The position numbers and the translations under genes are program-made. The notes under the pieces were generated by a model. The model had not been told where the DNA came from and ran no database searches. It saw only the letters and a program-made list of their open reading frames with translations. Shown here one piece after another: positions 4,201 through 64,000 of a stretch of DNA of 64,000 bases (the stretch's first letter is position 1; each line of letters opens with the position of its first letter). Source of the stretch: Sphyrna mokarran (taxonomy: Eukaryota); NCBI GenBank assembly GCA_024679065.1, contig JAGIQG010000011.1, forward strand, positions 39,432,001 through 39,496,000, in the 5' to 3' direction.

Positions 4201-7200
4201 TATGGAACAACTTGCATTTGTGATCCTATTACTTTGCCATACAGTATAATCATTTTTTAAAGTTTATGAATGATTTAAAAAGCTTTTTCTATAAATGGCC
4301 CAGAATTTGCTTGAAAAGTAATGGCAATGTTAATGTGCTTGCAGTTATTAGTGTAATCTATTATTTATGGCGGGGAAGAGATAGCAAGTTGTGAATCACT
4401 ACAAATTGTTGAACAATTTGCACTGCTCAACCAATAGCCTTGTGAAAATGGGATCTATCCCATCAGTCTCCCTGTGAGTTTCAGAAAGTGCTGCATTTGC
4501 ACCGTCAAATGAATTAAATTCATACAGGAAGTTAGGACTGACACAGAATGATGTAAGAACCCTTTTCATTTCAATGTTTAATTTCCTGCAATGCCACTCA
4601 ACCATTCCAGGCCAGAAAAGTACCGATTGAGACAGATTATAAATTGCTCCTGGAGATTTTTAAAACATTAAGTGTTACATTTTAAAAATTATTCTTGTTT
4701 TCCCTTTCCATTCCTTTCAATCTCTGTCAGTCTAATTTTTATCTCCATTTTGTATTTAATTTGGTGTAATTCACACCATTTCTTTTTCCACCATGACCTC
4801 TGTTTCCTTCTGTCCTTGATTAAGGAAATAGAGTGTTGGTTCTGATGTCCAGTAAGCTCTCAGATACCTGTCGATTTGGTGTCTTAACGTTATCAATTTG
4901 CATTTCCAGCACTTTGTAAGGCAAAATATTTTTGGGCTGAAGGGTTGGAAAAAATATATAATAATGGTCATACCATGAGATGTTATGCACCAGCAAATTC
5001 TGGGCCAAATTGGAATTTAGTTTTATTTGTTTGTCATTCATTTTACATTCTCACAAGTACAGTTTTTTATCTTCATCATTTATACTAATAGTTTAATTTT
5101 TTAACAGTTGTAGAGAATTAACTGAAGACCTTGGAACCTAACACTTCATGTTGTAGGAGGCTGTTTGGTCGTACCTTTCACCTTACCTCAATGTTTTCTA
5201 AACCATGAGTTCCTTTCTTCCTATTGACCATTTTGTTTTCATTCTCACACAACATTTTCCAAAAAAATCATCTAATTTAGCTAACCTAATAATCAATCCA
5301 TCCCTGCCTGTCATGTGACCAATCATTAAAACAATTAAAGTAATTTGTAAAAAATGTAACTTTATTCTTCTTGGCCTGGTTAGGTTTCTATAGCAGGAAC
5401 TGCTATTGTTACTCTGGAAAAAGAGTTGTCTGCGTCTTCTGCTGTGAAGGTTACCAAGCCGGTGAAACCTCCCGTGTTAAAAGAGGCCAGAATTGTGACA
5501 GAGGAGAGTGTCTCTCCCCAGCCTCGTTTTAGAGAAAGAACAGATGTGTATGAAACACGCTTTGATACTGAGGTGCACAGGCATCTAGGTTTAAGTGTTT
5601 CAGGCTCACTTGAAGCTGATTTTGATGTTGAACACGAGGAAGATCAATATGAAGCAGAAGATGAGCAGGTTTGTTAATTACCCAATAGTGTGCCCTAAAT
5701 ACGCTAACTTTGTGTGTTCCCTACAAATTAACAGCAGTAAATAGTGCAAAACATTTTGTTCCTGATCAAAAGCACAGCTAACGTTTTTAGCTTGTCCCTC
5801 TCTCAGCTGAAACTGTTCAGTTCAATGTAACACCTTAACTCCTTTTGTCGTGAGAATGAGAACTCAGTGGTGTGACAGCTTGACAGTCTTCTGCAGGAAG
5901 CTCGTTCCCATATTTTTGTTTGATGTGTGACACTCTCCAAAACCTAATACAAAAGCATAATACCATGGTTGCTGGAAATCTGAAATAAAAACAGACACTG
6001 CTGGAAATTAGCAGATAGGGCAACAGTCAGAGGGACAGAACAGAATTAATGTTTCAGGATGATGGCTTTTAGTCAGAACCAGAAAAGTTAACGATGTAAC
6101 AGATGAAGAGGTAAAGAAAGGGGGTAAATGGAAGAACAAAGTGGGAGAACATAATCATGTAGATGGCATGCAGATTAAATGCCAAAAGCAAAAGTGAATT
6201 CCCCTAAATTTATTTGACTAGTTGTTAAATATGATATCATTTGTTGCTCACTATACTTTGTTTTTTCAGATCACAGAACCTGTTGCTCCAATTCCAACAG
6301 TAGTTCCACTTACTGCACCAAGTTTTGTGTCAGTAAGTAAATTAATTCACATGAAACCACATTTTAATGGACCATTCGTACATTGTGGTCTTTACATTTG
6401 CTTCATTTCCAGCAATTTAATTTTACTGTATTTTTTTGTAGGGCTTGAAAAATGTCACTGTAATAGAAGGCGAATCTGTAACCTTGTCATGTGAAATCGC
6501 AGGACATCCAACTCCAACCGTGAAGTGGTTTAGAGAAGATTATCACATTGAAAGTTCCATTGATTTCCATATAACATTTGAAAAAGGCATTGCTAGTATA
6601 ACAATTAGGGAAGCCTTCGCAGAGGACAGCGGTCGCTTTACGTGTACTGCTACCAATGATGCTGGTACTGCTAGCAGTTCATGTTATCTTCTTGTTCAAG
6701 GTGCGTATTTTAGCAGCATTAACAAAGGTGATTAAAATTTGAGAAACAATTATTGTAAGGTACCATTAAAATAATTTATTATTTGTACTTCTTTAGTATC
6801 AGAAGAGATTGAGAGCAGAGAGGAAGCCATTGCAGTATCAGAGCCAGCTGTCACTGAAAAGAAACGGTATTTAAAATCTTTAGATATTACTGTTAGAAAC
6901 AATTAATCAAACTTATTGATTTTTTATTTCTGACATTTTGCTTTTTATTTTTGGATTAGGATATTTTTTGACCTTTGCTCTGTGCATTATATGAAGAGTA
7001 GCATAAATAATATAAAGATATATGACAACACATGTTAAAAAGAAGTTATTCATGATGATCTGTCAATCAAAACCAGTCTCATTATTTGTTTCTTACTAGA
7101 GTTGAAATGAAAGTTGAAACTTTATCAGGAGCAAGTACTACCCCAGAGTCAGTGGAAGATGGAGCAGGAATTGCTCCTTTCTTCATTAGGAAGCCAATTG

Positions 7201-31200: not shown

Positions 31201-34200
31201 TGCAACATTCAAAATAGCTTTGGGTCAGACTCATGGCAACTGTCAGAAGCACAAAACTGCATGCCTGTCTGCCTTTAATCTGCAACGCAAACTGATTTAA
31301 AAATTCCTCCCTCTGTCAAAGTTGAATTTCAGTCCACTTTTTCCAACAAGAAACAGTAGACAGGAAAATCTTAATTTTTTCAAACAGCTGTTCAGAAAGT
31401 GGAATACATTGATGTGGTCAACTAAAATTAAGTGTTCAGTAGCTTTTTTGTATATTTATTTAAAACTCCTTCAATTCTTTCTCTCTCTCAGATTTTTTTT
31501 AAAATGAAAGTCATGCAATTTTCTAGTGCTATGATAAAAGAATAAATGGCTATTCAACCATTTTATAATAAATATTAGTTTATTGGAAATGAAAAGCTAA
31601 TGTTTGGCCTTCTTTTCTGTCATTACTTCAGTTGCCGAGCCTCCTTCCTTCAAGGTGGAGCTGGAACCTTGTGCTGTGAAAGCTGGAGAACCTGCTCGAT
31701 TCTGTGGTGTAATAGTTGGCACACCAAAATTAGAAGTATCTTGGTTCAAAGATAGCCAAAAGCTTTCCTCAGGATTTAAGCGCAAGTTACTTCATGACGA
31801 GAACCAGTACACTTTGTTACTGATTGAAGCACTCCCTGAAGATGCTGGCACCTACACTTGTGAAGCAAAAAATGAAATTGGGGTAGCTGTTAGTAGTGCT
31901 TCACTTGATGTTGAAGGTACAACTGATTGAGTTAATTTATTTGCATGTTAAGTGCTTTGATATATAATCTTTATGTAATATAGACTGTCTGCTGTTAGTT
32001 ATATACAGGTATGGGGGAAATAAAATTACTCTTTGGTAATGGTGTGATATGAGCAATAGCAAATCGCCAGTCTGTTTTGAAAGCAATGGAAAAGAAAATT
32101 GGACACTGTGTTAAATGTACACTTGATGCCTTTTTTGTTATTGCTCATTTTGTCCTACCGTTTCTATAAATAACAGTTGACTTGAGGTTCTGTGCAATTT
32201 AATCAGCGATGAGCTTCTGCCATCTATTAAAATCTTCAAACTTATGTTGGTGCAGCAATGGATTTTCCTTTACTTTGCATAGTTTTCAAATCTTCATTCT
32301 GATAAGCTAAGATGTGCACACAACATTTTATGAATTATTTATTATTTACAGTTCCAGAAGTTGTTTCTCCTGAGGTAGAGGTACCTGTTTATCCACCAAC
32401 CATCGTAAGCCCGATACAGGACACTTCAACCACTGAAGGAAAATCTGCTCAATTTCAGTGCCGCGTCACTGGAACAGGTATGTTCAATATTTATGTTTCA
32501 GTTTCATCTTTCTTATTTCAGTTTCCAACTTCCACCCCTGAAAAGTTGACTTCTGCTAAGGTTTCACAATGCACTTATAATTTAGCCATTGTCTATATTT
32601 ATGAATTCAGCCACTCACCACAGATGGCATCGCAATTAGCTCCCTGTGCCACCTGTCATTTGTACAATGGAAACATTTTATTTTCAAAATTATAACTCAG
32701 GAAGTGGAAAAAGTTAAGGATAATATCCCATACCCAAGGCTCCTAAAAGAGTTATCTGCAGAGATTTGCGGTTATGATTTTGCAAAATCCCCTAGGTTCC
32801 AGTCAACTGGAAGTTGACAAATGTAATTCCATTATTCAAGGAAGGACGAGGAGAAATTAAGGAACTGCAGGCCAGTTGACTTGACATTTATTGTTGGAAA
32901 AATACTGGAATCTATTATTAAGGAAGTCTTAACAATGACTAGACAAAGTCATTAAAGTTTTGCAAAATTGTGCTTGAAATTTTTTTCAGAAGAGCATAGG
33001 TAACAGGAAACCCAGTTGATGTAATATAGTTGGATTTCCAAAAATAATTTGGTAATGTGCCATGCAAAGGTTTAATGTACAAGCTAAAGATTCTTAGAGT
33101 TGAGAGTAATATGTTAGTATAGATAGAGGATAGGTTAGTGGACAGCAAGCAGAGAGTAGGGTTAAAGGAGACATTTTCAAGTTGACTAGCTGTGACTAGT
33201 GGAGTACCACAAGCGCTGGGGCTCAACTATTTACAATCTATATTAATGAATTATACAAATAGATCAAGGGCACGATTCACGCCACACTCCTGCTGTAGCG
33301 AGGTCAGAGAAGGTGAAATAGTTGACCTTGCCACTGCTGGAATGGGGATTTTGTGGCTGGTCTGTCCTTCTAACCCTGGCACACCTGAATATTGCCCTGG
33401 CATAGTGATTTCAGTCAGCCCTGTGATCAAAACCTGGATTCTTGTCTGTCAGCTGTGAAAATTCTGAAGTGGCCAGTTCGCTTTCATCTCCATGTCTCCC
33501 CTGGTCACCTGGCAGGATTTTAAGTCGTTACAGCATTTCATTCGGCAGCCGAGATTTTCCTTTTACTCTGATCAAAGCTGCAGGTGTGAAGTCCTCTGAC
33601 AAAAAGGAAATGTCAATTTCATCTTGGGCATGCGGGGGCTCCATTCTGTACAGTCATGCACTCAGCCCCAATGTGTGCGCACAATTTTGATTTTCTGAGG
33701 TTTCCTAACAAGATGAAATCTTGAAACCTGTCCATTGCACTTGAAGCCTTTGACCTGCAACAAATTCACTCTGCAGTGCCTCATAAAAGGTTCACCTGAC
33801 AACTCAGTGAACTTCTATCTCCCTCCAACCACCTGTGTTTATTTTTATTTGCCTTCACAGTTAAACACCTCAAGTACCTCATTAATCCTGACCACAATGT
33901 TGACAGAATCTAAGCTTGACTGATAGTTTGTGGTTTAGCTTCCTCTTTTGCAAGCCACTTGAAACAGGAAGTTAGACTACAAACTGTAAATCTGGCTTAG
34001 ACTCTGCCGACATTGTGGTCAGGATCAGTGAGGTGCATTCAACCATCTCAGGTGGTTGGATGATGACAGAGACCCATTGAGCTGGCAGCTGAATTTTTTA
34101 CTGGCACTACCCATTGAATTTATTGCAGATCAAGACTTCAAGTGCAATTGAGAGGGTTTCAACAATTTCAGCTTATTGGAAAGTGTCAGCAATTTCAAAT

Positions 34201-37200
34201 TGAAGTTGTGTGCATACATTGAGGCTTAATGCATATGGAGCAGACTGGACTCCCCAGCCCCAGGTGAAATTGACATCTCCTCTCTGTCAGGGAACTTCAA
34301 ATGGGTCTACTCTCACCTGCAGCTTCTGACAGAGAGAAATGAAAACCTCAGTTGCAGAATGGAATGCTGCAATGACTTAAAATCCTCTTAGGTTACCAGG
34401 CAGTATGGAGGTTAAAGTGACATGGTCACTTCAAAGTTTGCACAGCTGACAACCAGAAATGCAGATATTGATAACAGGGTTGCCTAAAATCATCATGCTA
34501 GGGGTGATCTTCATGTCTGCCACAGTCAGAAGGGGCAGTCCAGTCAAGACCATACCACAACAACCCCCCCCCCCCCGCTTACTGATGGAGAGTGGCGAGA
34601 TCAACCATTTGCATCAGCCTTAATTAACCTAAACTCGAGGACCCTTGAGCGATGTATCCTCTGCAGCCTAGCAGCAGCAGAGTGGCAAATGGCCTCCTCG
34701 TGCCCCTTAGAGCCTAAAGCACTAGGTCAGAGTGCCAAGGTGCCAAGGAACAGTTCATTGTGGCACTTCCAAGGTGCATAGCCTGAAGGAAGACTGAGGG
34801 GGAGCTCTGAGGGGGGAGGAGGGCTGTGTGGGGGGAAGGATCTCAGGTGGAAGACACTGAATGTAAGGTCTGAGAGGAGGTGGGTCAGGTCACCTTATGT
34901 CTGCATGGTATTTTGGGGGGAGGAGTTACCCATTAATTGTGGCTAGAGGGAAGGATGCCCCACTTTGTTAGTGCTGCACTGGTCAGTTGCTGAGCAGGGT
35001 GGCGGGGGGTGAGGATTCTATTCAGGGTTTTTTTAATCTGGGATGGGGATCAGGTGGCTGTCTCCTCGCATGGGGATTGGGGAACCCTTTAAAAATATTA
35101 GCCCAGTCTCTGAACAGCGGGGATGATCGGTGGGATGATCAAAATAAATTTATTAGCATCTTTCAGGTAGCATTGTGATGTCGCTTTTTATCTGAAGCGT
35201 TATTCAAATGTACTGTCAGGGATTGGGTTGCTCTTTTGTAGGAAGGCACATACTTGTGCTCAGAAGAAGACCAGATGAATAACATTAGCCTTTGTTAAGG
35301 GCACTTATCATCAGCACAGAGCTGCCAATATTCCCCATTTCCAAGGTTAACGGACTATTCCTATTTAGTCATAAAAACAGAAGGTGAAAAAATTCCTTTT
35401 ATTCAAAAGCAAAAATAAAGTGATTTCATGGCAATACTTGTTCGTCTCTCAGGATAGAAAATGTAACAAAATGGTGACTTTGAAAATCGAAACACCAGGT
35501 TTTACATCAAATGCTAATGGGAAATTTAAGTCTCTGACATTTTAATACCATTTATTTTCCTGTGCCCTTTTTAAGTGGAAACACCATGGAACCCTAATAA
35601 TCTAAGTGTAGATATAAAAACGTTTTGTATATTCTAGGTTAGTATCTAAACCCCCTCTTTGCTATCTAACTGTCTCTAACTGGTTGCACAATTTTAAGGA
35701 GTTTTCAACAAGTCCTTTTCAACCTTTTTTCTTGGCTTGAAATTTATTAATTAAATTTGATCATTCTACATTCGTTGCAGAAGAATTTTCATTTTACAGA
35801 TTTAAAATACATATTAGCACATTGTATTTGCGATTGAAAAGTCTTTCTCATGTGTGAGGATATTTTGGCAAAATGGTTGTTGGAAATGTCAAACTTTTCT
35901 TGTTGGACGTAATACTGAAACAGTTCTATCCTTAATCTAGCCCTGACTGATATTAAAGCTAGCATTATATTGCTTCCAAAAACCCAACTTTTGTATGTGC
36001 CTGTCTCTATCTCTCTTTACTCTTCAAGACATTCTATGAAATCAATCACATTGATCAAACTTTTGGTCATCTGCTTTGATACTTCACAATGCAGAAAGAT
36101 GTTATTCAGTGCATTATATCCTCACTGCTTTTCTACAAGAGCAACTCCACCATTCCAGTCCTTGCCTTTTTGCTGTAGTTTAGTAGTTTTGTTCTTTTCA
36201 GATAATTATCCAATCCCTTTTCAAAGTCATGATCCGCCTCTAAGGGAATGGATTCATTGCGTGGGGGAAAAAAAGCTTTCCTTCATATCACCTTTGCTTC
36301 TTTTATCATTCATCTTAAATCATTGTTTTGTTTCTACCACTAAGGAAACGGTTTCTCCTTATCCACTATGTGCAGTCCACTCATGATTTTAAACAGCTCT
36401 ATCAAATCCAATATAAGCTGTGCCTTCTTGAAAGAGAGCGGCAAGTGCCTCAACCCTGGAAACACTTTGTGCAAATCTTTTCCTGTGCCCTTTCTAAGGC
36501 ATTCACATCCTTAAGTGTAGTGCCCAGAAATGGACACAAAACTCAAACTGAGCTTGAACCAACATTGAAAAAAAATCACCATAAGTTTCTTCATTTTGCT
36601 CTTCATGCCTCTATTTATAAAGATAATTCCAAATATCTTATTAACAGTGTTCTCAACCTACCCTATCATCTTCAACACCTATATCCAGGTGTCTCTTTTC
36701 CTGCACTCACAATTGTAGTATACTCTTTATATTACCTTTCCTTATTCTTCCTACTAAAATGTATCACTTCATACTTCCCTGCAATAAATTTAATCTGTCA
36801 TCTGCCTGTTTTATCATGTCCTCCTGAAGTCTATCACTATCCCCCTCACGGTTTGCAATATTTCCAATTTTGTATCATTTATAAATTTTGAAATATTGTC
36901 CCTCATATCCAAGCCAAGTTCATCAATATAGATCAAGAAAGCAATGGTTGTAATACTGATCCTTGGGGAAGTTCAGTATATACCTTCCTTCAATCTAAAA
37001 AAAACAATTGTTTGCCACTGCTCTTGTTTCCTGTCACTCACTGAACTTCAAATTCATGCTGTCACTGTTCCTTTTATTCTCTGGACTTTAACTTTGCCGA
37101 CAACTCATACATGTTTCACTTGATCAATCATCTTTTGAAAGTCCATGTACATCACATCAACCCTATTACCCAATCAACTCTTTCTGTTACACCATCAAAC

Positions 37201-40200
37201 ATCTCAAATCAAGCTAAGTAAACACGTTTAATTTTTAACAAATCCATACTTGTTTTTCTTTAATCTAAGTGACTATTAATTTTGTCCCAGGTTATTGTCT
37301 CCAAAACCTTTCCCACCATCAAAGTTAAACCAACTGGCCTGTATTTGTTGGGACTATCTTTAAACTCTTTTTAAATCCTGAATGCAGCATTTGCGATTCT
37401 GCAATTCTTTGGCATCTACATCTAAAGCGGATGGGAAGATTATGACCAATACCTCCATGATTGCCACGCTTGGTATCATCAGATGCATTTGATGGAGTTG
37501 GAGTGACTTGTATAGCACAAGGTCAAATCTTCTTTACTGTTGCTTGTGTGCAGCACCTTGGGAAGTTTTACCAAACTAATGATACTATATATAAATAACA
37601 GGGCTGCAGAGTTTGATTATGTAGTACTAGTGATTTTAGAACTCTGAATTCTAGTTTTATTAGCAAATTACATTCATGGCATTTCTGCACACAGCCAGTG
37701 TGATGTGTATAAAATTCCAATTTAAGAACAATAGGGAGTGTAAGTAAGACAGAAATATGCAGACTAGACAGATTATGATGTTAGCCAGCATCTGACACTG
37801 ATTTGTCAATAAGTGTGCCATTTTAGACCTTGCTTTTCTTATTAATGCCCTCTTTGAAACACACAAAGCTGAACATATGTTCAGCAGCATGAGGGATACC
37901 CCATCAATGTAATTTATAGATCATTTATGTCTTACAGTCAATTGCTGCTGGCTGATCGAATTTTTGGAAGTGCTAAGTGGTATTGCACATGGGACAAATA
38001 TTACTTTTAACTGCAAGGGCTCTGAGTACACCACATCATGGGTAATAATAGCAGTTTCCTTGGGCTGGAGCACGAAGGGAGATGATGCAGAAGCAACAAC
38101 TAAGAAGATGGAGAGGGAGGATGAAGGGAAAGAAGCAAGAGGTATTTACACACCCGCAATCCTCCCCAGCCCTCATCCTAATTCTAGTTATGATGTGGAG
38201 ATGCCGGCATGGGACTGGGGTGGACGCTGTAAGAAGTCTCACAACTCCAGTCTATCTCTCCACTCACCTGATGAAGAAGCAGTGCTCCGAAAGCTTGTGA
38301 TTCCAGATAAACTTGTTGGACTTTAACCTGGTGTTTTGATACTTCTTACTGTAATTCTAGCTAAATCTGGATCAAGTGTCTACAATTTACCAAGGAAATG
38401 GCCAAAGAGCCCTATTTTTTCTTGGGAACTAGACCTGAAGTTTTTGAGCAGGATGAAGACAACGTTGCCAGTGTCTATAATGGTGACTGTGGCACTTAGG
38501 TTTTTCACAACCAGCTCTTTCCAAGCTGGAAAAAGAATGACATGTCTAACACCTGATTCACCTTCCAGTGATAAATGGAAGAAGTGATAGTGCTTCTGTC
38601 CGCCAGAAAATGGGACTTCATTGTGAGAAGCAGGAGGAGCATGCATCTTGCTTTGGAAGGAAAGTGGGCTTCTCTATGGTGCCGGCTGCCATCCGCTGCA
38701 TACATGTGGCTTTAGGGACATTATGTCTGGATTTTCATCATCAGGCAGGCAGTGGGAGTTGAAGAAATTCCTGGCTTGGTTCACCTAGGAGAAATTGCCC
38801 AAAAAGATGGGTTTTAATTGTGGAAGTGTAACTGTGGTTGAGCTGTCATCAGACCAGCTGACCTGGGAATGTTTGAAGGCAGCCCAGGTGATCCAACAGC
38901 CAAATGGATTTTGAGGTTTTTAACCAAGCACTCATAATAAAAGCTTGACTGAGAGCCTAGCAATCTTATTAGACTGTTAAAGCACCTGCTCTTTCAAAGA
39001 AAACATTGCCATAATTCATTGAAGACCTGGTCTGACTCCATGAAATTTTCCCACGATTCATTAAAAACCTGGTCTGACTCCATGAAATAGGCATGGTCTG
39101 ACTCCATGCTTATTCTCGCAGTGGAATTGGCCAAGTCAGAAGTACAGGAAGTAGACTTTGAAACCCTAGGAATGGATCTGGAATTCCTGAATCTGGTCTG
39201 GCCACCATTTGTAAAGGACTTCTACAGCATCCTGACTGGGTGAAAATCCAGGCCTACATTTCAACTGTGAGCTATTCCAAAACCATAAACTCAGGGGTTG
39301 TGTGCCATGCTCAGCACATCATGCCATTGAATGCCTACTGTCCTAGAAGTAGTCATGATGCATTTATTCTATGCCAGTTACAACTGTCTTTCAGCCATCA
39401 GATCAAAACATAGGTGGGCAATGAGATATCTAATTTATATCTGTCTAATGAAATCTCTTTACAAACTAACCACATATGGCAAGCATGCTAGCGTGGGAAA
39501 CATCATTGGGCAGAAGATGGAGTGCTGCAGCATTAGTTATGCTTTCTAGATTATTGTGAAGGAGCCTCCCACTATTGACCAGAGCGGGTATCCATTTTGT
39601 AACGGATGATTACATACCTTATAACCTGGTCATTATGATAGCACAACTCTTGCCACGAGGGATATGGCAGAAAGACTTCAGAAAGAAAAGCAAGAGGACA
39701 GGATGGACTGTATATGAACATGTAATTCAACTTCAGTTCTTGTGAATAATGCCACAAATCTTCATTTTTATAACAAGACACCCAAATACTCCATAAAATA
39801 TTCAGCTAATTACTCTCGTGCATTTCCTTTATGTCTGCCTTCAATGTCCCCATGACTATCCTAGTGCTTCAAGGTGTTAGCTCAGTGATGGCTGCATGAG
39901 CGATGAAAGGTAGGAAATTGCAAACAGCCTTTGAGGGCAGTTTTGAGCAGCTCTGGGCCATGATTCAAACTGCACTGCCTCAGCAGTCTGGGCTGACTGG
40001 CTTACAAGGCAGCAGCAAAAGCACTGGCAAGATGACAGCAATGGAAGTATAAATGCTGTCATCCCGAAAGAGTATAGCACTTGTATGCTCCCAAACTATC
40101 ATTGCTACATCACTTCAGCAATCAAGTAAGCTTCTGGAGGACATATTGCCAGACAGTGAGACCCTGCAACCCCCTTGAACACTGCTGTCTGCAGCCATGT

Positions 40201-43200
40201 TGGCAGCACTCTGAGCCTGTTTGGCAATAAGCTGAGATTTCATAACTTCAGTTTGAATTTCTACTGTTGTACTGATATGTTGGGGGCCTCTGTTTTGCTA
40301 CAATGGAAGTCAAAGCATCAGACATTGGGCTATGGTTGGGTCCAGAATGTTCTCATGGAATTTGCCACTACTTCCACACTGTAAAGAATGGGCTTCTAGC
40401 TCTGCACAAAACTCATGCCAACTTGGAGTCATACTTCTGCATATTTCTTAATAAGGAGAGGCAGCCTTCCTGGCAAGTCTGGTAATGCTTCAAGCATTTC
40501 TTTCTGCTTGGAAGCTAGACTTGTTGGATGAGGGTAAAGCACGACTTGAGAAGATGGGTGATCAGGAGGAACATAATGTCATCCTCAGTGGATTAAGCCC
40601 TGCCACAGGTCCCTGCTTCAGGAACAACTCTTACACTGCTGGCAAGCACTGTCTCCTCCATGGACATCAGCACATGCAGTTTCCCACACTCCCTTCTCAC
40701 CCCATCCTGGCAGGTGCCAGCTTGTCCTAGGAAGAGAGTAGGAAGTGTGTCTTCGAGTGTAGTGCAAAGTGTTTGAATATTGCGCATGCCACAGTTGAAC
40801 AGCTGGCAGAATGTACAAGTTGTGAGGTGCAAGTGTGCATCTGCAAGCTGCACAGTCACTTGGAAATATTTAGCTGTAACTCTCAGGCTGTGCTGCACTT
40901 CAATCTGTGCTATGCTGAAAATTTGCAGTTCTTTCTCTTGATTGGCTAGCACTTAACCTGTGGATTTCTGCTGTCTTTACAGTGTGGTTCTCTCTCACAC
41001 CACTTCTTTTGTCATTTTTGCTGCTGGGTGTTCCCATTGTTTGTACAGATTACCACTTTCTGACCTTCCTTCTTTTACATAATCAGTTCGTAACCTTAAA
41101 CAATTTTTCTATGTATATTTCAGCTGCATTATTTCAAATTATAAGCACTGCACAGTTATATTATTTGAATTTAATTGTGTTACTTTTAAGTTAATGCTGT
41201 AGCTTATTAAGTTGAAGTTTGTTTGCGAGATTACAGCCAATTCAGAACATTTTGGTGAAACTGCATTTTTTTAAAAATACATTTAGATGTGAAGGTTACA
41301 TGGTATAGTAAGCAGAAGGAGATCAAACAATCGCGATTCTTCAAGATGGTTCAGTTTGAAGATACCTATCAACTGGAAATTGCTGAAGTGTACCCGGAGG
41401 ATGAAGGAATGTATAAATGTGTAGCATCCAACTCTGCTGGAGAGGTGTCGTGCACTGCTAACTTAAAACTGGAAGGTAAATTAATGCATTCTTTATTTTG
41501 GCTTTATATGCTACACATTACATTATTTTTACATTTCTGTTTTCCTGGTCTGAATTTTGAAGCATATTCCTGCCTGTGGTTATTTTCATTGTTGGTAATG
41601 GTTAACATTGCCTGTGGCATTCATTTTTACACTTTAGCACCATTGGGCCAGCAAGCATATTCACTTTTTATGAAAGCATGTGCATTTTGTGCTTGTATTG
41701 CTGAACACCATTCCACCTTGTCTCTGTATCTCCATTGGTTGAAGCATTTCATCCATAATAGATTTCATCAAGCAACTCATCTAGTCTACATTTGTTTCCA
41801 AACCTGTAATAACTCATGACCAGTTCTTTCATCCGCCTCTAAGGTAAACAACTGAGGCTACCAGCTGTGCACTGTGGAATGCCACTATAACACGATTATA
41901 CTTACTAAATAAATTTCTTTTGTAAACAACATTAATATGTTACAACTGTAAATTTATTCAGCAATAAAGCATTGTACTTCATCATTTTGTTTGGATTTTT
42001 TTGTTAGATCTCCTCTTGCAGTGGCTTCAATTTTAAGATTTTTTTCAGTAAACTATAAAATAAGATGAAAGTTTTCATCAAATGCACCCAACTACCTCAA
42101 CCATACAAAGGCACACTAATTTTTAAATGACAAGTATGTGCCTTGACTTTTAATTTACAATGCCAGTCATACAGTGCAAAACCTGATTTCCTTTCCAGGA
42201 TATAGAAAGGTTGATTACATCAAATACATCATATGTCTACGTTTGGCTCTTCTGAAGAAGCAACATGAGTCTAAGTGCTTATCTTTAGTGTCTGCATTTT
42301 AAGTAGGCAAGTGCACATTGGGCTGGCAAGCATATTATATGCAATAGTGTCTGTTGGTCCCAAACCAAAGATCCAAGGATTGCATAGTGGACAGTTAATC
42401 AAGCCAAGTTCTGGTGCTTCATTTTGATAGTCTAAGAACAACAGTATACTTATTACTGATGCAAGAATACAATTAGGATTTCCTTGGTATAGTTCTTGTT
42501 AACTGACTTAGCAATTTCAGCAAAGTACAGCCCACATTGGGCAATATAAATATGCAAAGCATAAATAAACTGTGCTGGCAAAAAAATCTAATAGTGCTAC
42601 ACTTACAGTAAACAATTTACCCTCTGACTAGATATTTGCTGTAATTCTTCCAAATAGTATATTTTTTTTGACTTTGCATTTCATATCACCTCATGTTTCT
42701 AAAACCTGATTCCGTTAACACACAATTTAGAAGCCTTTCATCTTCATCTTCATCTGGAACATTTGCAAGAGAAGAACTAAATCTTCATTTTGTTCAATGA
42801 ATGCCATTTTCTCCCATGGAATTTTGCAGATTTTGTTGAGGAAAAGGAATTGGGAGTTTTCCTCAATCAAGTGAATTGCACCTCTTTAGCATGTGGTTAG
42901 CATGCTGGGTTGCCCTTTGGACAACATGAGCTGTTGCTTTGATTATTTTGTCAGTCATGATTTAATATCATGATTAATACTTTGTCTTTTGTTACTCAGA
43001 TTACAAAGTGCAAAGCATAGATAGTCAGAGCATAACAACTTCTGGAAAAGCTGTAGAGGAATCCATCGCTTCAAAGACTTTTGAAGTATCAGAAATGCAT
43101 GTGGAGTCCCCTGTGACCTTAACGCATACAAAGAACTATACCGAGGAAATCTGTTTGCAGCAAGAACATACATACAGTGTTCAGACATTTGAAAGTATTT

Positions 43201-46200
43201 CCATGAGTTCATCAAGCAAGACAGTTTCCTCTGGAAGTTGGGAAGAATGCCAAAAAATTGCCAAGACGGAAACAGTTAGAAGTGGCTGTCAAAATTCACC
43301 AAAAATCTTGCAAGATCTGAATGATGTCACAGTTTTGTTAGGTCAAACTGCATCTCTAAAATGTCAAATTCTAGCATTGCCTAGACCAGAAATAAAATGG
43401 TATAAAGAAGATCAAGAACTTATGGAAGTTAAGAGAATTAAAATTGTTACTATAACAGAAGATGAAGTTTTGACATCATCTGAATTAATTATACAGCAGA
43501 TCCAAGAAGAAGACACAGGAATTTATAGATGTAAAGCTACAAATCCTTTTGGCGAAGTTAAATGCAAAGCCAAAATAATTGTTACAGCAGCCAAACCTGC
43601 CCTTGAGGTTCCCCTGATTCTCCTTGAACTTAGTGATCTAACAGTGAAGGCTGGTCAGATGGCACAGTTCATCTGTTCTTTTAGCGGGGAATCTTTTACA
43701 GAGGTCATATGGAGTCACGGAAGCAGAAGACTAGAAGAATCAGGAAGACTGAAGATTTCTCAGAATGGAAATGTTATGTCTCTCACTATCCTAAATGTGC
43801 ACTTAGAAGATCAGGGACAGTACAGCTGTACTACAAGAAATGAAAGTGGTGAAAAGAAGACTACTGCTGTACTAATTGTAGAAGGTGGTTGTTTATTATT
43901 TTATTTTCAAACAGCATCCTGATCCATCCACTTCATGTATCTGTTCCAAAATAAGTTTAGTACCTTTTTAAGAAGATCCTAAGTTTACTTATTAATAGTA
44001 AAATGTTCAATTTAAAATGTTTAGCTAGTGACTTATACAAACCTTAACACTTGACACACCAAGTCTGCATGAATTATTGCAAACATTGCCTCTTGCTGTT
44101 ATAATTTTTTCAAGTATTTACTTTGCTGAAATTATTAAATCAGTTAACATTTATCCTAATTTTATTCTTGCATAGCTGAAGAATCAAAACCCAAAACAGG
44201 TGCAAAAATTCCCACTGATAGCAGCTCAGATAGCACAATAACTGAACAAAGACCACATATCACATCTGATAGCACACCAGAAGTACAAAAGAAACCGTCA
44301 AGTCCACCACCATCTTCAACCAAACGGCCAAATGGAAAAGAGAAGCTACGAAGCCGTGACTATTATCCTGACGTTGTGCCCTTTGACGAATTGATAGACA
44401 CTGGAGCCATAGCACCGATGTTCTTAGAAAAGCTGCCTCCAGAAATCATTGTTCAAGATGGAGAAGATGTGTTGTTGTTTTGCATCGTAAAAGGTGTACC
44501 ATCACCTTGTGTACTTTGGCTGTGCAACCAACGCATAGTTGAAGAATCTTCATTGTGTTCCATTAAACATGATGGGTTACTATGCAGTTTAAAAATGCAA
44601 AAAGTCTGCCAAAGGCACAGTGGCACTTATTCATGCAAAGCGGTTAACTCTGCTGGAGAAACAGCGTGCAACACTCTACTTAGAGTGACAGGTTGGCAAT
44701 TGCATGCTTTGGTCCTTCCCAATGTGACTTTATCATGCATCTCAGCACATCCTATGGAAAGATTCTTTGCAGAAAGTCATCTTGTTGACCTGCGGATTAT
44801 TGCATTCATTTTCCTGAAATCAGATTAGGCATGTTGAGGCATGTTTGTTGTTTCAATACACAGCAAATCAGAGAATGATTTTTTTTACAAAATCCTGGAT
44901 TGCCTGAATTATCTTTGTGATTCAGTCAACCAGTTGCTTGGTAAATCCTTCTAGAAATCACAATTAGCGAATATATTTAATTTTTTGGCATGTATGTTTT
45001 GTATGTCTTTGCATATTAAATGTATTTTGAGTTTCATTTTCCTTTTTGCATATTTTATTTTGTGGGAAAAATAGTGATACGTTCTTATAATTATATTCAA
45101 TATTCATTTCCATGCAGAAAAGATTCAAGACAAGATTGAACAACAGATAGAAATGGAAGTGAGAGGTAATACTTTTATCATTATTCAATAAACAATTATT
45201 TAACTTTGCATTTAATGCTAGGTTCGAACAACTGCTATCAACTTTGGTATTTTGCTTATCATGATAAGTTGTGCTGTGTTACAAAGTGTAAAAAAAATTA
45301 CAGGTTGTCTATGCCAATCTGATTTACAAACCCAACTTCTTGTTGTCATTCTCATTTTGACCTAAACAAAAAACCCTTTAACAACAAAAATATTTACTTT
45401 GCAGGAAATGTTATTTTTTAACCAGTATTAATTCCTCATATTTCAGCTGAATTTTAATTTGAAATTGCTCATTGTCATAACTGATACACTGCAAAAGGGA
45501 TAGATAGAGTTACATTCAGTAAGTTGTATTCTAACATGAATTATATAATGAGAAGTGTTTAAATGAACTCTCAAGTATCTGTCATTCAATGATTGAATGC
45601 TGAAAATATATATTTTAGTGGTGATTACTTGAATCAGTACTTTTGTTGTTCTCATTTACTTCTGATTTTCCAATAAATTTTTGATAAAGAACTCACAGGC
45701 AATATGTCATAAAGAAACTTTGACTAGATTCTTTTCCATTTTTAGCATTCATTTTCTTCCATTTTCATGACATCAACCTATCCTCATGTATTTACACTGC
45801 CTTGCAGATAGCAGTATGTGTTCATGTACGCTGGCATTTTTTTGCATAATATTGTGAATCTAGCAACTATATTAGTTCGAATAAACACCTTCTCATGCAA
45901 ATTGGAAGGATTACAGTTGTGGATGAATTTATTTCCATTTATTGATTCCAATTCTAAAAACTATCTCTGTCAAACTGGCTGAAAAATTTACCTGTTGTTG
46001 AAAAAGGATCAGAAAGGGCATTTATTCTGCTGTCTGCAAGTCAGGTAAGATTTGTAATAACCTAGATATCCCCAAATCACAGGGACAGATTTTACATTCA
46101 AAAATAACAAAATTCTGTCATGAGATCACGTTATGCTTTTTTCAAAACATACATTCTAATATGATTTTTGAGAAGAAATTGCAACAGTCTGAAGAAGGAA

Positions 46201-49200
46201 CAAAGAACGAGCGATTTTCCTGCTCAGAATCTTTAAAAAGAAAATGGTCTTGCGTTTATTCGAACAAATATGGTGAGTGAATTTTTTACAATATTTGTGA
46301 AAAAGCTGATCCATTAAGTTCATCATTTCATCATATTATAGATTTGTTCTAAATTTAATTCTTATAATGTTTTGAACTGCCTTTTAAGAAACTTCATACA
46401 AATTATTTCTTTTTTTTACAGAGTTGTTTTTTGATGCTGGGACAGAATATTTGGAAAATCGAGAAAACATGCGTGATGCATTTTCGGATGCCGAAGATTA
46501 TTTAGATCAGGGAATGGTTTCTGCTGATCGTTGTGCAAGCAGAACATCTTCTATAAGTTCTTGGTCTGAGAATTTCAGGCCATCTTTCACTGAAAAGCTC
46601 AAATTCAAATCCGTAATGGAAGGAGAACAAGCTGTTTTTAAATGCAAGTTGGTTGCCAGTCCAGCACCAAAAATTGCATGGTTTCATAACAACAGACCTA
46701 TATGTAAAGATTCAAGAAGGATTATTAAAATAGAAAGCATAATGCACATTCACAACTCAAGTTTGGAAATCAATAATGTAGAAGAGAAAGATTCAGGGAG
46801 TTACAAAATATTTGCAATAAACTCTGAGGGCTCAACAGAGGCAACTGCATCTTTACTCATTGCACTTAAAGAAGAGCAAAATGCAAATTATCTGAGCTTT
46901 GTGAAAAGATCAGAGATGGTTCACGAAAGTATAGACTCTTTAGTTAAGAAGCGGGATGCAAGACTTAGAGTTGATCTCAGACATGTTGGATCACCCTTTG
47001 ATAAGAAATATCAGGTTCAAGGAGCTTTGCGTAAACATTCAAATTCTAAAAGCAAACTGATGCGTACAATGTATTTTGAAAGAACACCAATAAGGCATTA
47101 TCTATATAAGGATAGATCTGCAGAAATACAGTCATCTAAATTATCAGGGAGGGTTTTCGATAAGGATAGCTTAATTGATGAAGATATTAAAATTAAATTG
47201 CAGCTTTTACGTGAAGCTAAAAGGAAAAAAAGATTTTCTCTTGCATTCTCTGAAGCTTCATTTGATCTGGGCACTGCATCGGTTGAAGACAATCTGAAGT
47301 ATAATTATGCATATTTAGACAGGGAGCGCAGCAGAAGTATGGGAGATATTGATCACATCGATTTTGAACCTAGTAAGTCTTATTTTGTGCAAGGACAGGA
47401 GCTGTCTTCTGGTAACTATTTCCAGAGAGAGTCTCCTGAATTTCAGTGTCAAATGGAGCGGGTATCAGGACTTTCTCTACAGGAAGTAGAGCCACAAAGA
47501 GACCTGAAAGAAAATTTTACTGAAGAATCTTCCAAAACAAAAGTCATAAAGTCATTACCAGAGCAATTTCTGAAAGGTAGTTTAATTCAAGAAGCAGAAC
47601 AAGAACAGGAAAGTCAATACAGATTGGAAGAAGAGGAAACCGATAAATGCTATTTTCAAAAGCAAGTTGATGAAAGAGAAGAACCACAGAGTGAACCTTG
47701 TGAAGAACCACAGACATTCTCTAACCAGTGGCTTGAAGGCTTTATTAATATGCAAAGGGATATAATAACAAAGGGGCCTGGAGAGTTGTTTGAGCCTCCC
47801 ACATCAGCAGTTAACGAAACACCAATAATTCAAGAAGCAGCACAGCCTGCAGCCAGTGTTGAATATCCAGAGATTTTACTGAAGGAAAAAGAATCCCCTC
47901 TGTTTGACAGAACACCAATAAAGCAAACTCCAGTGGAATTAAAAGAATGTCCAAGTAAATCTGAGTTGAAGGAAGACCATGAGATATTTTATGACCAGTG
48001 GTCTGAAAGTTTGATTAGTGTGCAGAACTCATTAGTGAAGGAAACTGAAAATAACCAGTCAATATTTGACTATTCCAGAGCAATTGAGATAAGTGGATCC
48101 AGATTTGGTGAACAAGATGACATGGTGAGAGAATCTTCACAAAAACAAATGCCTTCTCCTTTAATAGAAGAAAAAGAAGCCTCTACTCTGTTCAGAACAT
48201 CATTTGATGATAACACTACGGAAATAAGCACAATTTCATGCAGAGTTGAAGACAAAGAAGACCCTAGTGCATCTTTTGACACATGGTCTGGGAATGTCTT
48301 AGTAAAACAGGAGCCTGGATTTGACCACACAATCATTGATCCAACAAAATCCACTTCTGAGGAAAGTGAGATCAACCAAAAAGCAGCACAATTTGAGAAT
48401 GAAGATTATACCCAGATGATAACATCCTCTACTTTGCCAGAGAAAATAGAAACCTCAGAATTTGTCAGCTGCTTGGTGAAAGAAATACCAAAAGAAGTGA
48501 AGCATATTCCATTTAAATCTGATAAGGTGAACTATGGGACAACTGTGGAACATTGGCCTGAGAGATTCATTAGTGTACCTAGTGACTTACTAACTCAAAA
48601 ACCTGGAGATGGTCATAAAATATCTGACCAACCTGCATCAGCAGTCAGGCAGACAGAGGTAGTTAGTATGTCCAAAATCAGGCATAAAACCCTAGAAGAT
48701 GAAGCACAGTTTACAGATTCCAACCATGTTGTGAGACATTCTCCTCTGATAGCAAAAACAAAAGAAACATCAACTTTTACTAGAACAGTGAAAAAACAAA
48801 TTCCAGACGATATAAAAGAACCTCCGTATAAATCTGATATTGAAGAAGAATACGAGTCATCTTTTGATAAAAAGCATGGAAGATTTATTTGTGTGGAGAA
48901 AGACTTTCCAGCAGCAAAATATGAAGATAATCACAAAATCCCACTGACTGATCAAGCCAGATCAGCAATAGATCATGCAGAGGTGATTGATTTATCTAAA
49001 CTCAGTGAAAAAGAGCAGCATAAAGGCAAGGTTGAAGAATTCACTACAATACCAACAATTTGCATACCAGAAAAGAAAGAAACTTCAATATTTGTCAGTT
49101 CACCCATAAGTAAAAGAGCAACAGAAATAAGAGAACCTCCATATAAATCTGAAGTGAAGGATAGTCACCAGATGCCTTCAGAGCAATTTGTCGGAGGTTC

Positions 49201-52200
49201 TGTTGGTCTGATCAGGGGTTTTGTAACTGAAAAGTGTGAAGATACTAATGGAACAACCAATAGGCCCATACCATTACTCGAACAAATAGAGACAACAAGC
49301 AGATCTAAAATAAGTCAAAAAGAGTCACACCCCGAAGGTATGGTTACAAGCACCACCCAGATAATACACACAGAACCAGAGAGCAAAATTGAATCAAGCT
49401 TTTTCATTTCATTGAAGAAAGAAACAGCAATGGATTTCCCAAAAGAACCTGCATATGAATTTGGACATATGGAAGATCATGGAACAGCAGATGACCAGCA
49501 GGCTAGCTTTCTAACTGAGAAATCTGAAGAGAGTCATGAAATGTATAACCAACCTAAATTTACAGAAACACAGACTGAGATGATTAGTGTAGCTAAAATC
49601 AAACAAAAAGAGCCACAATATGAAGCAAAGATTGTGCATTCGACATGGATGGTGAAGCTGCCTTCTTTATCAGACGAAATGGAAACTTCAACTTATTTAA
49701 GTTCATTGAAAAAGCCAACTCCAATAGACAAAATAGAATCTCTTGAAAAACCAGAAATTAAGGAAGACCCTGAGACAGCCCTTGAAAGTTTTGCCATTAT
49801 GCACAGAGACTTCCAGACAGAGAACCTGGAAGGTGACCATGGAATACTTGATCAATCAGCAGATAGAGATATAGCAAAGATTAGCACATCTGAAATTAGT
49901 CAGAAAGAATCACAACAAGAGTGGAAAATTAAATGTTCTACCCAAATAGTGAGACCTTCTCCTTCAACAGAGGAAAATAAAACTTCAAATTTCTTCAGTT
50001 CATTAGTGGATGAGACACCAATAGAAGTACAAGAACATCAAAATAATTTTTTAGCTACCAAAGAATTTCCAAAAGAAGAGCCTCCTACAATTAAACATTG
50101 CCCACCTGAATTTCTCCATCATATTGCATCCACTAAAATTAAGCAAGGAGACTTGTGTGTGCTTGAGTGCCAATTTCAAGGACATCCACAACCTACTGTA
50201 ACTTGGTACAAGGATGAACGCCCAATTCAACAAAATATGGGCTATACTATTCACTCCATGGAAAACCAATCTACATTGAGTATTGGATGCACATGCAAAG
50301 AAAATGAAGGAGTATATACATGTGTAATATTCAACCAATATGGAACTGCAAGTACATCTGGCAGCCTTACGATACAAGGTAAGATTCTTAATGCTTTATT
50401 TATGAAATTATTTTCTTAAATATGTTTTTACAACATATTTTATGAATGATGACTTCAAACTAATGAAAAATATTTTTATTTTCCAGAACCAGAACTGTTT
50501 GAAGAATCTTTGAAAAGGTTTGACATACATGTTATTGAAGCACCAGAGAACTATACTGAAGAAGATGATGTTGATCAGTTGCTTGAAAATGAGATGGAGT
50601 CTTATGTTCCACCATTTACTGTAACAAAATCCACCTTGCAATTACCAAAGATTGCAGGACCGCGACCTTGTCCTGTAAATTTATCTTTGCTTTCTTCTCC
50701 TGTTGAGATTAAAATAACGGCTCCAACTCCAACACCAGAGCAAGATGAAGATCGGAAAGAGTTACTTCAAGAAGATGAATCTGATTCCAAGCATTCATCT
50801 CCAGAACTGTCCTCTCAGACCTCAAAGCACAAATTTACATTTTCTTTTGATGTAATTTCTGAACCCCCCCGTGTTTTGAAAGAATTAGATAAGATTTGTT
50901 GTGCAGAAGGGGAATCAGTGATGTTTGAATGTCTAATTTCTGGAGAGCCAACACCTATTGTTACATGGACACAAAATGACAGAGTTTTAACTGATGATAA
51001 TAGCAAGCACCGATTTGAAGAGAGTGGAGGAATGTATAGGTTATACATTGATGATGTTTCAGAATCTGATGTGGGGAACTATAAGTGTGTGGCTAAAAAT
51101 AAAGCTGGACAAGTACAGAGCACATCTAGTCTTAGAATAGAGCCCACAATGCATAGTTTTGTTTGCCATTTGAAGGATATTGAGCCACATTTTGAGGAAG
51201 TAGAGCCATCTGTCAGCCGTTTTCTCCTCAATTTAAGTAAAATGGGACAAGAAGGTATTGAGCAACAAAAACAATTATCACTACAGGAAGGGCATGTGGA
51301 CACTTCTCCTTTATATAGCAGAAAAGAACAAACGTTAGGGCTAATTTCTGAATCTGGAGACTCTTTTATTTCCACTGCTGATAAATTTTCGAGTAAAGTT
51401 TCATCTTTAAAGGAAGAGGGCATTGAAGCAATTATACGTTCAAATACTTCCTTTTCTGATGAAATTTCATCTTTGCAGGAGGAAAGCAATAAAACAGTCT
51501 CAGATTCAACAACTTCCTTTCCTGACGAATGTTTAAGTAAATGTTCGTCTTTAACAGAAATTAGTAAAAACATAGATCAAAAAATGCCAGATACAGCAGC
51601 AGAACAAACACATTCTATTAGCGAGTATCTGCGTTCTCTTGAGGAAAACCAGAAGGTGCCTGAAGCTTGGAAGATGGAAGAGGAAACAGAACCAAAAGAG
51701 GACAGATGTGACTCTGTGAGCGAAACGTATGAGGACAGTATATTCCCAGAAAGTGTATTTAAGCAAGTTGCAAGAAGTCCCAGAGCAGAAGCAGAAGGGA
51801 ATGGATCAGAGATTAAGTTAAGTGGTAACTCCATTTCCCCTGAATCCATCTGTGAAATAAATGTCAATCTAGCAGAAACAGTTTCTAGGAAAGATGAGGA
51901 AGATGAAAATGTTTCCATAGTACAGTATCTTCTTACTGCAAGACAGGAAGAAGCACCAATTAATGAAGAGGCAAATAATGATGCATTTGGGTATGATGAA
52001 TCTGGCATAACTTCGATGGAGATTGAGGAAGTAACATTCGGTGCTGTTTATGACTATTATAATCAAAATGAAGAGTGGGTACGCTCTCTGTCCCCTGAAT
52101 CTGAAATGTCAATTGAAATTAGCAGTACAATTAGTGATGATGTAGCAGAGAATGGAAGATTTTATACACCACCCTTGGCTTCTGATAATTTCAAATCTGC

Positions 52201-63433: not shown

Positions 63434-64000
63434 GTTGGATTATGGGGATAAAATCTTTGTTAATACGAACTTCAAAAACTAATATATTGAACTAACTATA
63501 TAGTTACTTTTGATATTAGTTTCTCAAAACTCAATTTAGTTTATGCCAATAAATTAACATGACTAAATATTTCCTTCCTTCCTTCCATTCCTGTCTTCCT
63601 ATTTTACCTTCCTTCTTTTAAAAGTAAAAGCATTATCTAGTTATCATTCTCTATACTGTGCAGTCAAAACTTGATCAGACTGCATCAGTTGATTTCACAG
63701 ATATTTTGCATCAAAAATTTCAAAACTTAACATCATTAATTTAGGCAACCTAATCTGGTTTTGTATTAATATAAATAAAAATTGCATTCTGGCTTGATGC
63801 AATCTTCAGGTGCTTTCACTGCCGGTAATAAGTAACTTTTAAAGCTTAAAGTTAAGTTTAAACTTTACTGTGACTATATTATTATTTTTTGGTCTCTTAT
63901 ACTTTAACATTAACTTTTGATTAACATCAGCCATGGTACTTTAAGTTTTTACTAACAGAATTAATATTGCTTTCATCCCCATATCCACATTTGAAGAGTT

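Follow-up and report, generated by a model that had tools for sequence, protein, structure and literature searches.

Exon X, as we term the candidate titin exon at 44176–44691 between the Novex-2 and exon-47 equivalents of Sphyrna mokarran, is quite probably an ancient, alternatively spliced cassette exon that existed in the ancestor of sharks and bony vertebrates and was probably lost toward mammals, judging from comparisons of sequence. It is a real, ancient titin exon of the Novex type that has apparently gone unrecognised as such. Its anatomy, a linker followed by an Ig domain and located between exons 44 and 47, is that of an optional exon. A sequence-only reading of this DNA had proposed such an extra in-frame module, and the proposal stands: the module appears to be under selection and is followed by a conserved RBFOX motif.

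Anatomy of exon X and its neighbours

The window, meaning the whole stretch of 64,000 nt analysed, holds the 5′ portion of a titin gene and spans Z-disc exons to the N2B exon. Exon X lies inside the gene on the sense strand, in a conserved order between known exons that is seen both in the window map and in L001, a bird-like contig described below (Table 1). The earlier description of an intact 172-codon, phase 1-1 exon with a clean acceptor proved accurate, as the frame is free of stops, phase 1 is found at either end, and the acceptor is pyrimidine-rich and terminates in ag. The borders are AG/GT, the exon is in frame with both neighbours, and its length is divisible by three (516 nt in the shark, 519 in the bird). 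A stop-free frame of 171 codons was obtained in 0 of 5000 simulated sequences with the composition of intron 43.

Table 1. Features of the exon X region, in window coordinates
Feature	Position	Strand	Description
Exon 44 equivalent	41287..41475	+	189 nt, phase 1; upstream constitutive exon
Novex-1 (exon 45) remnant	42194..42611	+	Decayed, with stops and frameshifts
Novex-2 (exon 46) equivalent	43000..43884	+	885 nt, phase 1; two Ig domains in sharks
Exon X	44176..44691	+	Putative 516-nt phase 1-1 titin cassette exon; same-border orthologue in L001
Exon X linker	44178..44411	+	78 aa, Ser/Pro/Thr/Lys-rich, predicted disordered
Exon X I-set Ig domain	44412..44690	+	8 Cys including B/F/G-strand triad; Pfam, model and fold search
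Donor and adjacent element	44692..44735	+	gttggc, TGCATG at +10, plus another element with DNA-level conservation across a 5-nt indel
Intron from X to exon 47	44692..45117	+	426 nt; GCATG at +11, +138, +148 and +297
Exon 47 equivalent	45118..45165	+	48 nt, phase 1; downstream partner

The linker is of low complexity, as had been noted, with Ser, Pro, Thr and Lys making up 50% of its 78 residues. In the structure model its pLDDT is <50 at residues 1–74, and in alignments it terminates in a conserved YPDVVP-type motif immediately before the Ig. Assignment as a PEVK exon is ruled out by composition, since Pro, Glu, Val and Lys account for 36% of the linker, compared with about 70% in a PEVK exon (PMC12241362).

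The Ig domain matches Pfam I-set with an E value of 3e-16, scoring 59.6 bits where the cut-off is 23.7. Its modelled strands form a beta-sandwich, and Foldseek matches comprise Igs of titin, palladin and MYLK, with titin I67–I69 among the best. The domain is indeed Cys-rich, carrying 8 cysteines in 93 residues against 2–5 in the 12 other window Igs sampled. Seven occur in the sevengill shark and three birds, and 3–6 in the others tested. With strand letters inferred from the structure model, the cysteines on strands B, E, F and G are conserved in 63, 70, 69 and 66 of 71 distinct sequences, respectively; one cysteine of the window's domain is common to only one of the 71. A B/F/G triad supports disulfide isomerisation in titin I69 and is present in 21% of human I-band Igs (PMC5766482). 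By analogy, the redox-sensitive mechanics that the first reading had floated are plausible for the X Ig; given how common the triad is in human I-band Igs, such tuning would be ordinary.

The exon 44 equivalent is 73–76% identical to bat and bird titin, and its size agrees with the entry in Table 1 of PMC5852582. Upstream of Novex-2 lies a remnant of Novex-1 that matches bird Novex-1 at 245 of 352 aligned bases (z 12). Its frameshift-tolerant protein score was 64, against a maximum of 39 among 60 simulated introns, and the first Ig of N2B scored 51 in the same comparison. The earlier reading that exon X was retained while Novex-1 decayed in this shark is upheld. Novex-1 is a pseudo-exon here, and an expressed “Novex-I” is reported in elephant shark (PMC12241362); either Novex-1 was lost later or the names are used differently. 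The shark Novex-2 exon also has a second Ig domain, at 43296–43586, that precedes the usual one. This extra domain is found in Heptranchias as well and forms its own group in the tree, and neither the bird exon (582 nt) nor the gar and Chaetodon models contain it.

Orthologues, distribution and selection

Orthology was assessed with a bird-like contig, L001, and a tree of Ig domains. The contig is of metagenomic origin, was one of 145 pattern matches, and is 90–91% like bird proteins in exon X. It carries exon 44, Novex-1, Novex-2, X, exon 47 and Novex-3 in that order, with exon X at 4570–5088 (519 nt) and with borders as in the shark. Its exons 44, Novex-1, Novex-2 and 47 measure 189, 375, 582 and 57 nt (the two Novex sizes by eye), and these values equal those of chicken exons 44–47 in PMC5852582 (Table 1). 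In L001, 2043 nt separate Novex-2 from exon 47, including the 519 nt of X. The corresponding stretch is listed as “intron 46” in that table, at 1898 nt in chicken and 3044 nt in human. For zebrafish, the table leaves 2350 nt between exon 44 and a 390-nt “exon 45”, and only 357 nt between the latter and exon 47, which is the position of X in the shark and bird; this exon may be X, or X may have been lost from that gene copy.

The tree contained 47 Ig domains over 93 columns, few for that many rows, and its 19 relatives of X were picked from a stored set, passing over near-copies, incomplete models and the three copies with the most decay. All 20 X Ig domains tested formed one clade with support of 100/99, which excluded the Igs of Novex-1, Novex-2, I14 and N2B and all six of Novex-3. 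In local alignments the X Ig is 25–45% identical to other window Igs, and only 26–35% identical to those of Novex-1 and Novex-2. Exon X is consequently neither a Novex-1 nor a Novex-2 orthologue, given its separate clade and the co-occurrence of all three exons in birds, and the same two lines of evidence contradict a moved or duplicated Novex-1. Nor does X replace Novex-1, since birds have Novex-1, Novex-2 and X side by side.

Three homologue searches, one search of representatives at 50% identity and three cluster look-ups recovered exon X, whole or in part, from 21 named species, together with many further matches lacking names. The carriers comprise a sevengill shark (Heptranchias), a gar (Lepisosteus), a reedfish (Erpetoichthys), one teleost (Chaetodon), one frog (Staurois), two turtles (Gopherus and Pelusios) and 14 birds, including Gallus. 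The closest named relative is that of Heptranchias perlo, at 87% identity over all 171 residues. A shark-specific novelty is thereby excluded, as orthologues occur in fish, a frog, turtles and birds among the bony vertebrates. Searches differed in yield: the first homologue search returned one orthologue among five matches, and among the 150 listed representatives, one (P0135) was an orthologue and multi-Ig giants crowded the list. The ESM Atlas gave generic I-set clusters alone. Exon X was reached in proteins of 53–2000 residues, and the representatives listed were <8000 aa, below the size of full-length titin models, which might include X.

None of the protein matches carrying exon X in these searches came from a named mammal. 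In two titin models from bats, exon 44 is followed by 47 and then 48, with no exon X; these models are silent on the bat genome itself. In line with the sequence-only reading of human TTN, the human exon table of PMC5852582 has no exon between 46 and 47. Since that table lacks X and no named mammalian match was found, exon X probably disappeared on the line leading to mammals. Decay is seen in certain teleost-like copies without names, with 29–36 identities over 82–91 columns in three of these. In the teleost-like copies P0190, P0191 and P0192, the frame and donor word are intact and the Ig core is decaying.

The possibility, raised at the outset, that X is an already annotated conserved exon of fish and birds turned out half true. 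It is conserved in those groups and automatic gene models do contain it, but each named model found presents it as a separate, non-titin gene. The names given are MYLK-like, myopalladin-like, MyBP-H-like, twitchin-like, SPEG-like, VSIG10-like, Ig-like or none, and never titin. In most automatic models, that of chicken in RefSeq among them, the frame reads through the donor to its end and is not spliced to exon 47. A predicted frog model (Staurois, P0246) splices X to exon 47 at exactly the shark donor position and is the sole exact case. Novex-1, Novex-2 and X are strung together in two predicted models from birds (P0194 and P0212); classically, Novex exons are used as mutually exclusive alternatives.

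Selection was estimated by simple counting on one pair, the shark and L001, near saturation. The X Ig gave a dN of 0.23, a dS of 1.17 and a pN/pS of 0.33 over 93 codons, for a dN/dS of about 0.2. Elsewhere, pN/pS was 0.82 in the X linker, 0.15 in exon 44 and 0.41 in the Novex-2 Ig. Shark and chicken share 68% identity in the X Ig, compared with 60% in I14 and 56% in the Novex-2 Ig. On these codon counts, the encoded X Ig is under purifying selection.

Splicing signals and alternative readings

The donor of exon X, gttggc, had been called weak, and this was only partly upheld. It has T at +3, shared among the 17 window donors scored only with the N2B donor, but its match to the donor consensus (6 of 9 positions) falls inside the range of 5–7 for those 17 donors. 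The N2B donor itself reads gttgga, at 63434–63439. The TGCATG reported 10 nt downstream is confirmed, starting at intron position +10 (44701). Such a motif lies within 150 nt of the donor at 3 of the 17 window donors scored. For GCATG, the shark intron has four copies against 0.5 expected (Poisson P 0.002, post hoc), and the 422-nt bird intron of L001 has GCATG at +11, +150, +161 and +295. The donor and first 20 intron bases are the same in the shark and L001 save one base, after which comes the 5-nt indel. Alignment of the two introns gave a z of 8.0, against 0.9, −1.5 and 1.0 for three control intron stretches. GCAUG downstream of an exon usually enhances its inclusion (PMC11874969), Rbfox1/2 act by way of U1 recruitment to promote a muscle-specific exon (PMC10514471), and Novex exons in rat are not under RBM20 control (PMC5852582).

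The donor and motif are also visible in protein databases, where the read-through word G[WL][QH][LM]H[VA] occurs in 94 of 104 candidate proteins, many of them near-copies from birds. The other ten are seven models spliced elsewhere, one short frame and two non-X proteins. Fish read-through tails fit the shark 0 frame. Compared with the shark +2 frame, four of seven tetrapod-like tails scored at ≤6 of 2000 shuffles, two more matched weakly and one did not. As the 5-nt indel of L001 shifts the read-through frame and the homology crosses that frameshift, a conserved coding tail past the donor was rejected and the tail looks intronic.

These findings bear directly on the strongest rival, that X is an alternative last exon like Novex-3, joined at its acceptor, its donor ignored, and a stop a few codons into the intron yielding a mini-titin shorter than that of Novex-3. 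Most gene models do read through to a stop, and the shark intron has one ATTAAA, at 45015. Against this, the tails vary in length from 13 to 66 residues, with homology that crosses the frameshift, neither AATAAA nor ATTAAA is present in the bird (L001) intron, and a perfect phase-1 donor is conserved. We regard a terminal exon as unlikely.

Conservation of the intron also invites the proposal that X is hardly translated and is kept mainly as RNA that tunes the nearby choice between Novex-3 and N2B splicing. In keeping with it, pS within X (0.55–0.59) is lower than in exon 44 (0.85) or the Novex-2 Ig (0.70), conservation extends into the intron that follows, the motif survives longer than the Ig in some teleost-like copies, and X is missing from the reported heart RT-PCR (PMC5852582, in the parts consulted). 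The frame, however, is open from shark to bird, pN/pS is lower in the Ig than in the linker (0.33 vs. 0.82), and core residues are conserved, which fits selection at the protein level; we consider a role confined to RNA very unlikely. Finally, the non-titin or missing names of all X-bearing models would suit a separate small nested gene (MYLK-like, myopalladin-like or MyBP-H-like) made of Novex-2 and X, plus Novex-1 in birds, but this is highly improbable, as model starts vary within Novex-1 or Novex-2 (known titin exons 45 and 46), three models (P0165, P0246 and P0164) connect X with pieces of titin I14, exon 47 or Novex-3, and no kinase domain is listed for the models.

Under the preferred reading of X as a titin cassette exon, the atypical donor would make skipping the default, and RBFOX acting at the four downstream (U)GCAUG sites would turn on inclusion in a certain striated muscle or at a certain stage. 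Because exon 44, Novex-2, X and exon 47 share phase 1 and have lengths divisible by three, every combination is in frame and X could join alone or with Novex-2. Inclusion would extend the proximal tandem-Ig segment at its end, immediately ahead of Novex-3 or N2B, by ~78 flexible residues and one Cys-rich Ig. The likely job of X would be that of a small optional spring plus docking module, and its Ig could form a buried B–G disulfide as described for titin I69.

In the accessible parts of PMC5852582 (results and Table S1), no X-sized extra exon is reported from RT-PCR of chicken and frog heart with primers spanning the place of X (44–48, 45–49 and 46–49), and cardiac inclusion is, for this reason, probably low in both animals. 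The same source reports “intron 46 retention” for chicken and frog. A fuller version of the proposal makes X a fourth Novex exon, ~450 million years old, switched by RBFOX in non-mammalian striated muscle, with an unusually Cys-rich, redox-tunable Ig, a short conserved docking motif and loss in mammals, and has part of the chicken and frog “intron 46 retention” perhaps represent X. As a package, this falls somewhat short of probable in our judgement.

Relation to known titin modules

Exon X is most similar to Novex-1 and Novex-2 (exons 45 and 46). These also lie between exons 44 and 47, are phase 1-1, consist of a unique linker followed by an I-set Ig, and are patchily retained across vertebrates (PMC5852582, Table 1 as consulted). 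In contrast, X is a third exon with its own clade that co-occurs with both in birds, is absent from the human exon table, and is followed by a conserved GCAUG cluster. Novex-3 (exon 48, an alternative terminal exon) is a neighbouring module that X resembles in having models that read to a stop; X differs in its conserved in-frame donor and in having neither a conserved tail nor a shared poly(A) hexamer. The I-band Igs I67 and I69, with their Cys triad, share modelled cysteines on strands B, F and G with X, which has further cysteines, chiefly the E-strand residue kept in 70 of 71 sequences.

In elephant shark, two cassettes, “Novex-I” and “Novex-II” (LC422594 and LC422595), have been described between I15 and N2B, and the text seen of that paper names Novex-I, II and III only (PMC12241362). 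“Novex-I” is included in skeletal muscle there, and one of these exons could be X under another name. Term searches of the available portions of PMC4720518, PMC5874998, PMC12198301 and bioRxiv 2020.01.08.898627 gave no mention of exon X. Literature searches, with subscription papers on chicken and zebrafish outside their scope, returned no description of an exon at this place and no titin “novex-4”. It is possible, if rather doubtful, that exon X has already been described somewhere.

As the titin exon map is taken from human, modules lost in mammals are invisible on it. Recognition of X would correct that map for birds, reptiles, amphibians and fish, and would explain misnamed MYLK-like and myopalladin-like genes, e.g., chicken XP_046777693.1. 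It would also help to date gains and losses in the Novex cluster, where this shark lost Novex-1 and mammals seem to have lost X; if true, the latter loss would count among the steps by which the titin spring was remodelled in mammals. Being compact and deeply conserved, exon X would further lend itself to tests of how RBFOX controls titin splicing in a region that is not regulated by RBM20 (PMC5852582). The accepted view of titin function is left unchanged.

Several minor features of the window were recorded. The intron between exon 47 and Novex-3 (45166–46421) is 1256 nt long; that between exons 47 and 48 is given as 1021–1105 nt in Table 1 of PMC5852582, which places an exon 48′ there. Novex-3 seems, by eye, to be split by a ~108-nt GT-AG intron with in-frame stops (50379–50486), and exon 48 is a single exon in the eight species of that table. 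A segment with a KH-like look at 37913–38584 had no Pfam match. At 15422–15620 is a 199-nt copy, 98.5% identical, of 16301–16499, part of an exon of the Z-disc region. It sits just upstream of the original with broken flanks, which would fit a recent local duplication or an assembly artefact. Within intron 43, 1.2 kb at 33354–34546 is 70% identical to its own reverse complement and is possibly an old fold-back transposon. Imperfect tandem repeats occur at 560–1014, within a long Ala/Gly-rich frame (313–1284) of the Z-disc region.
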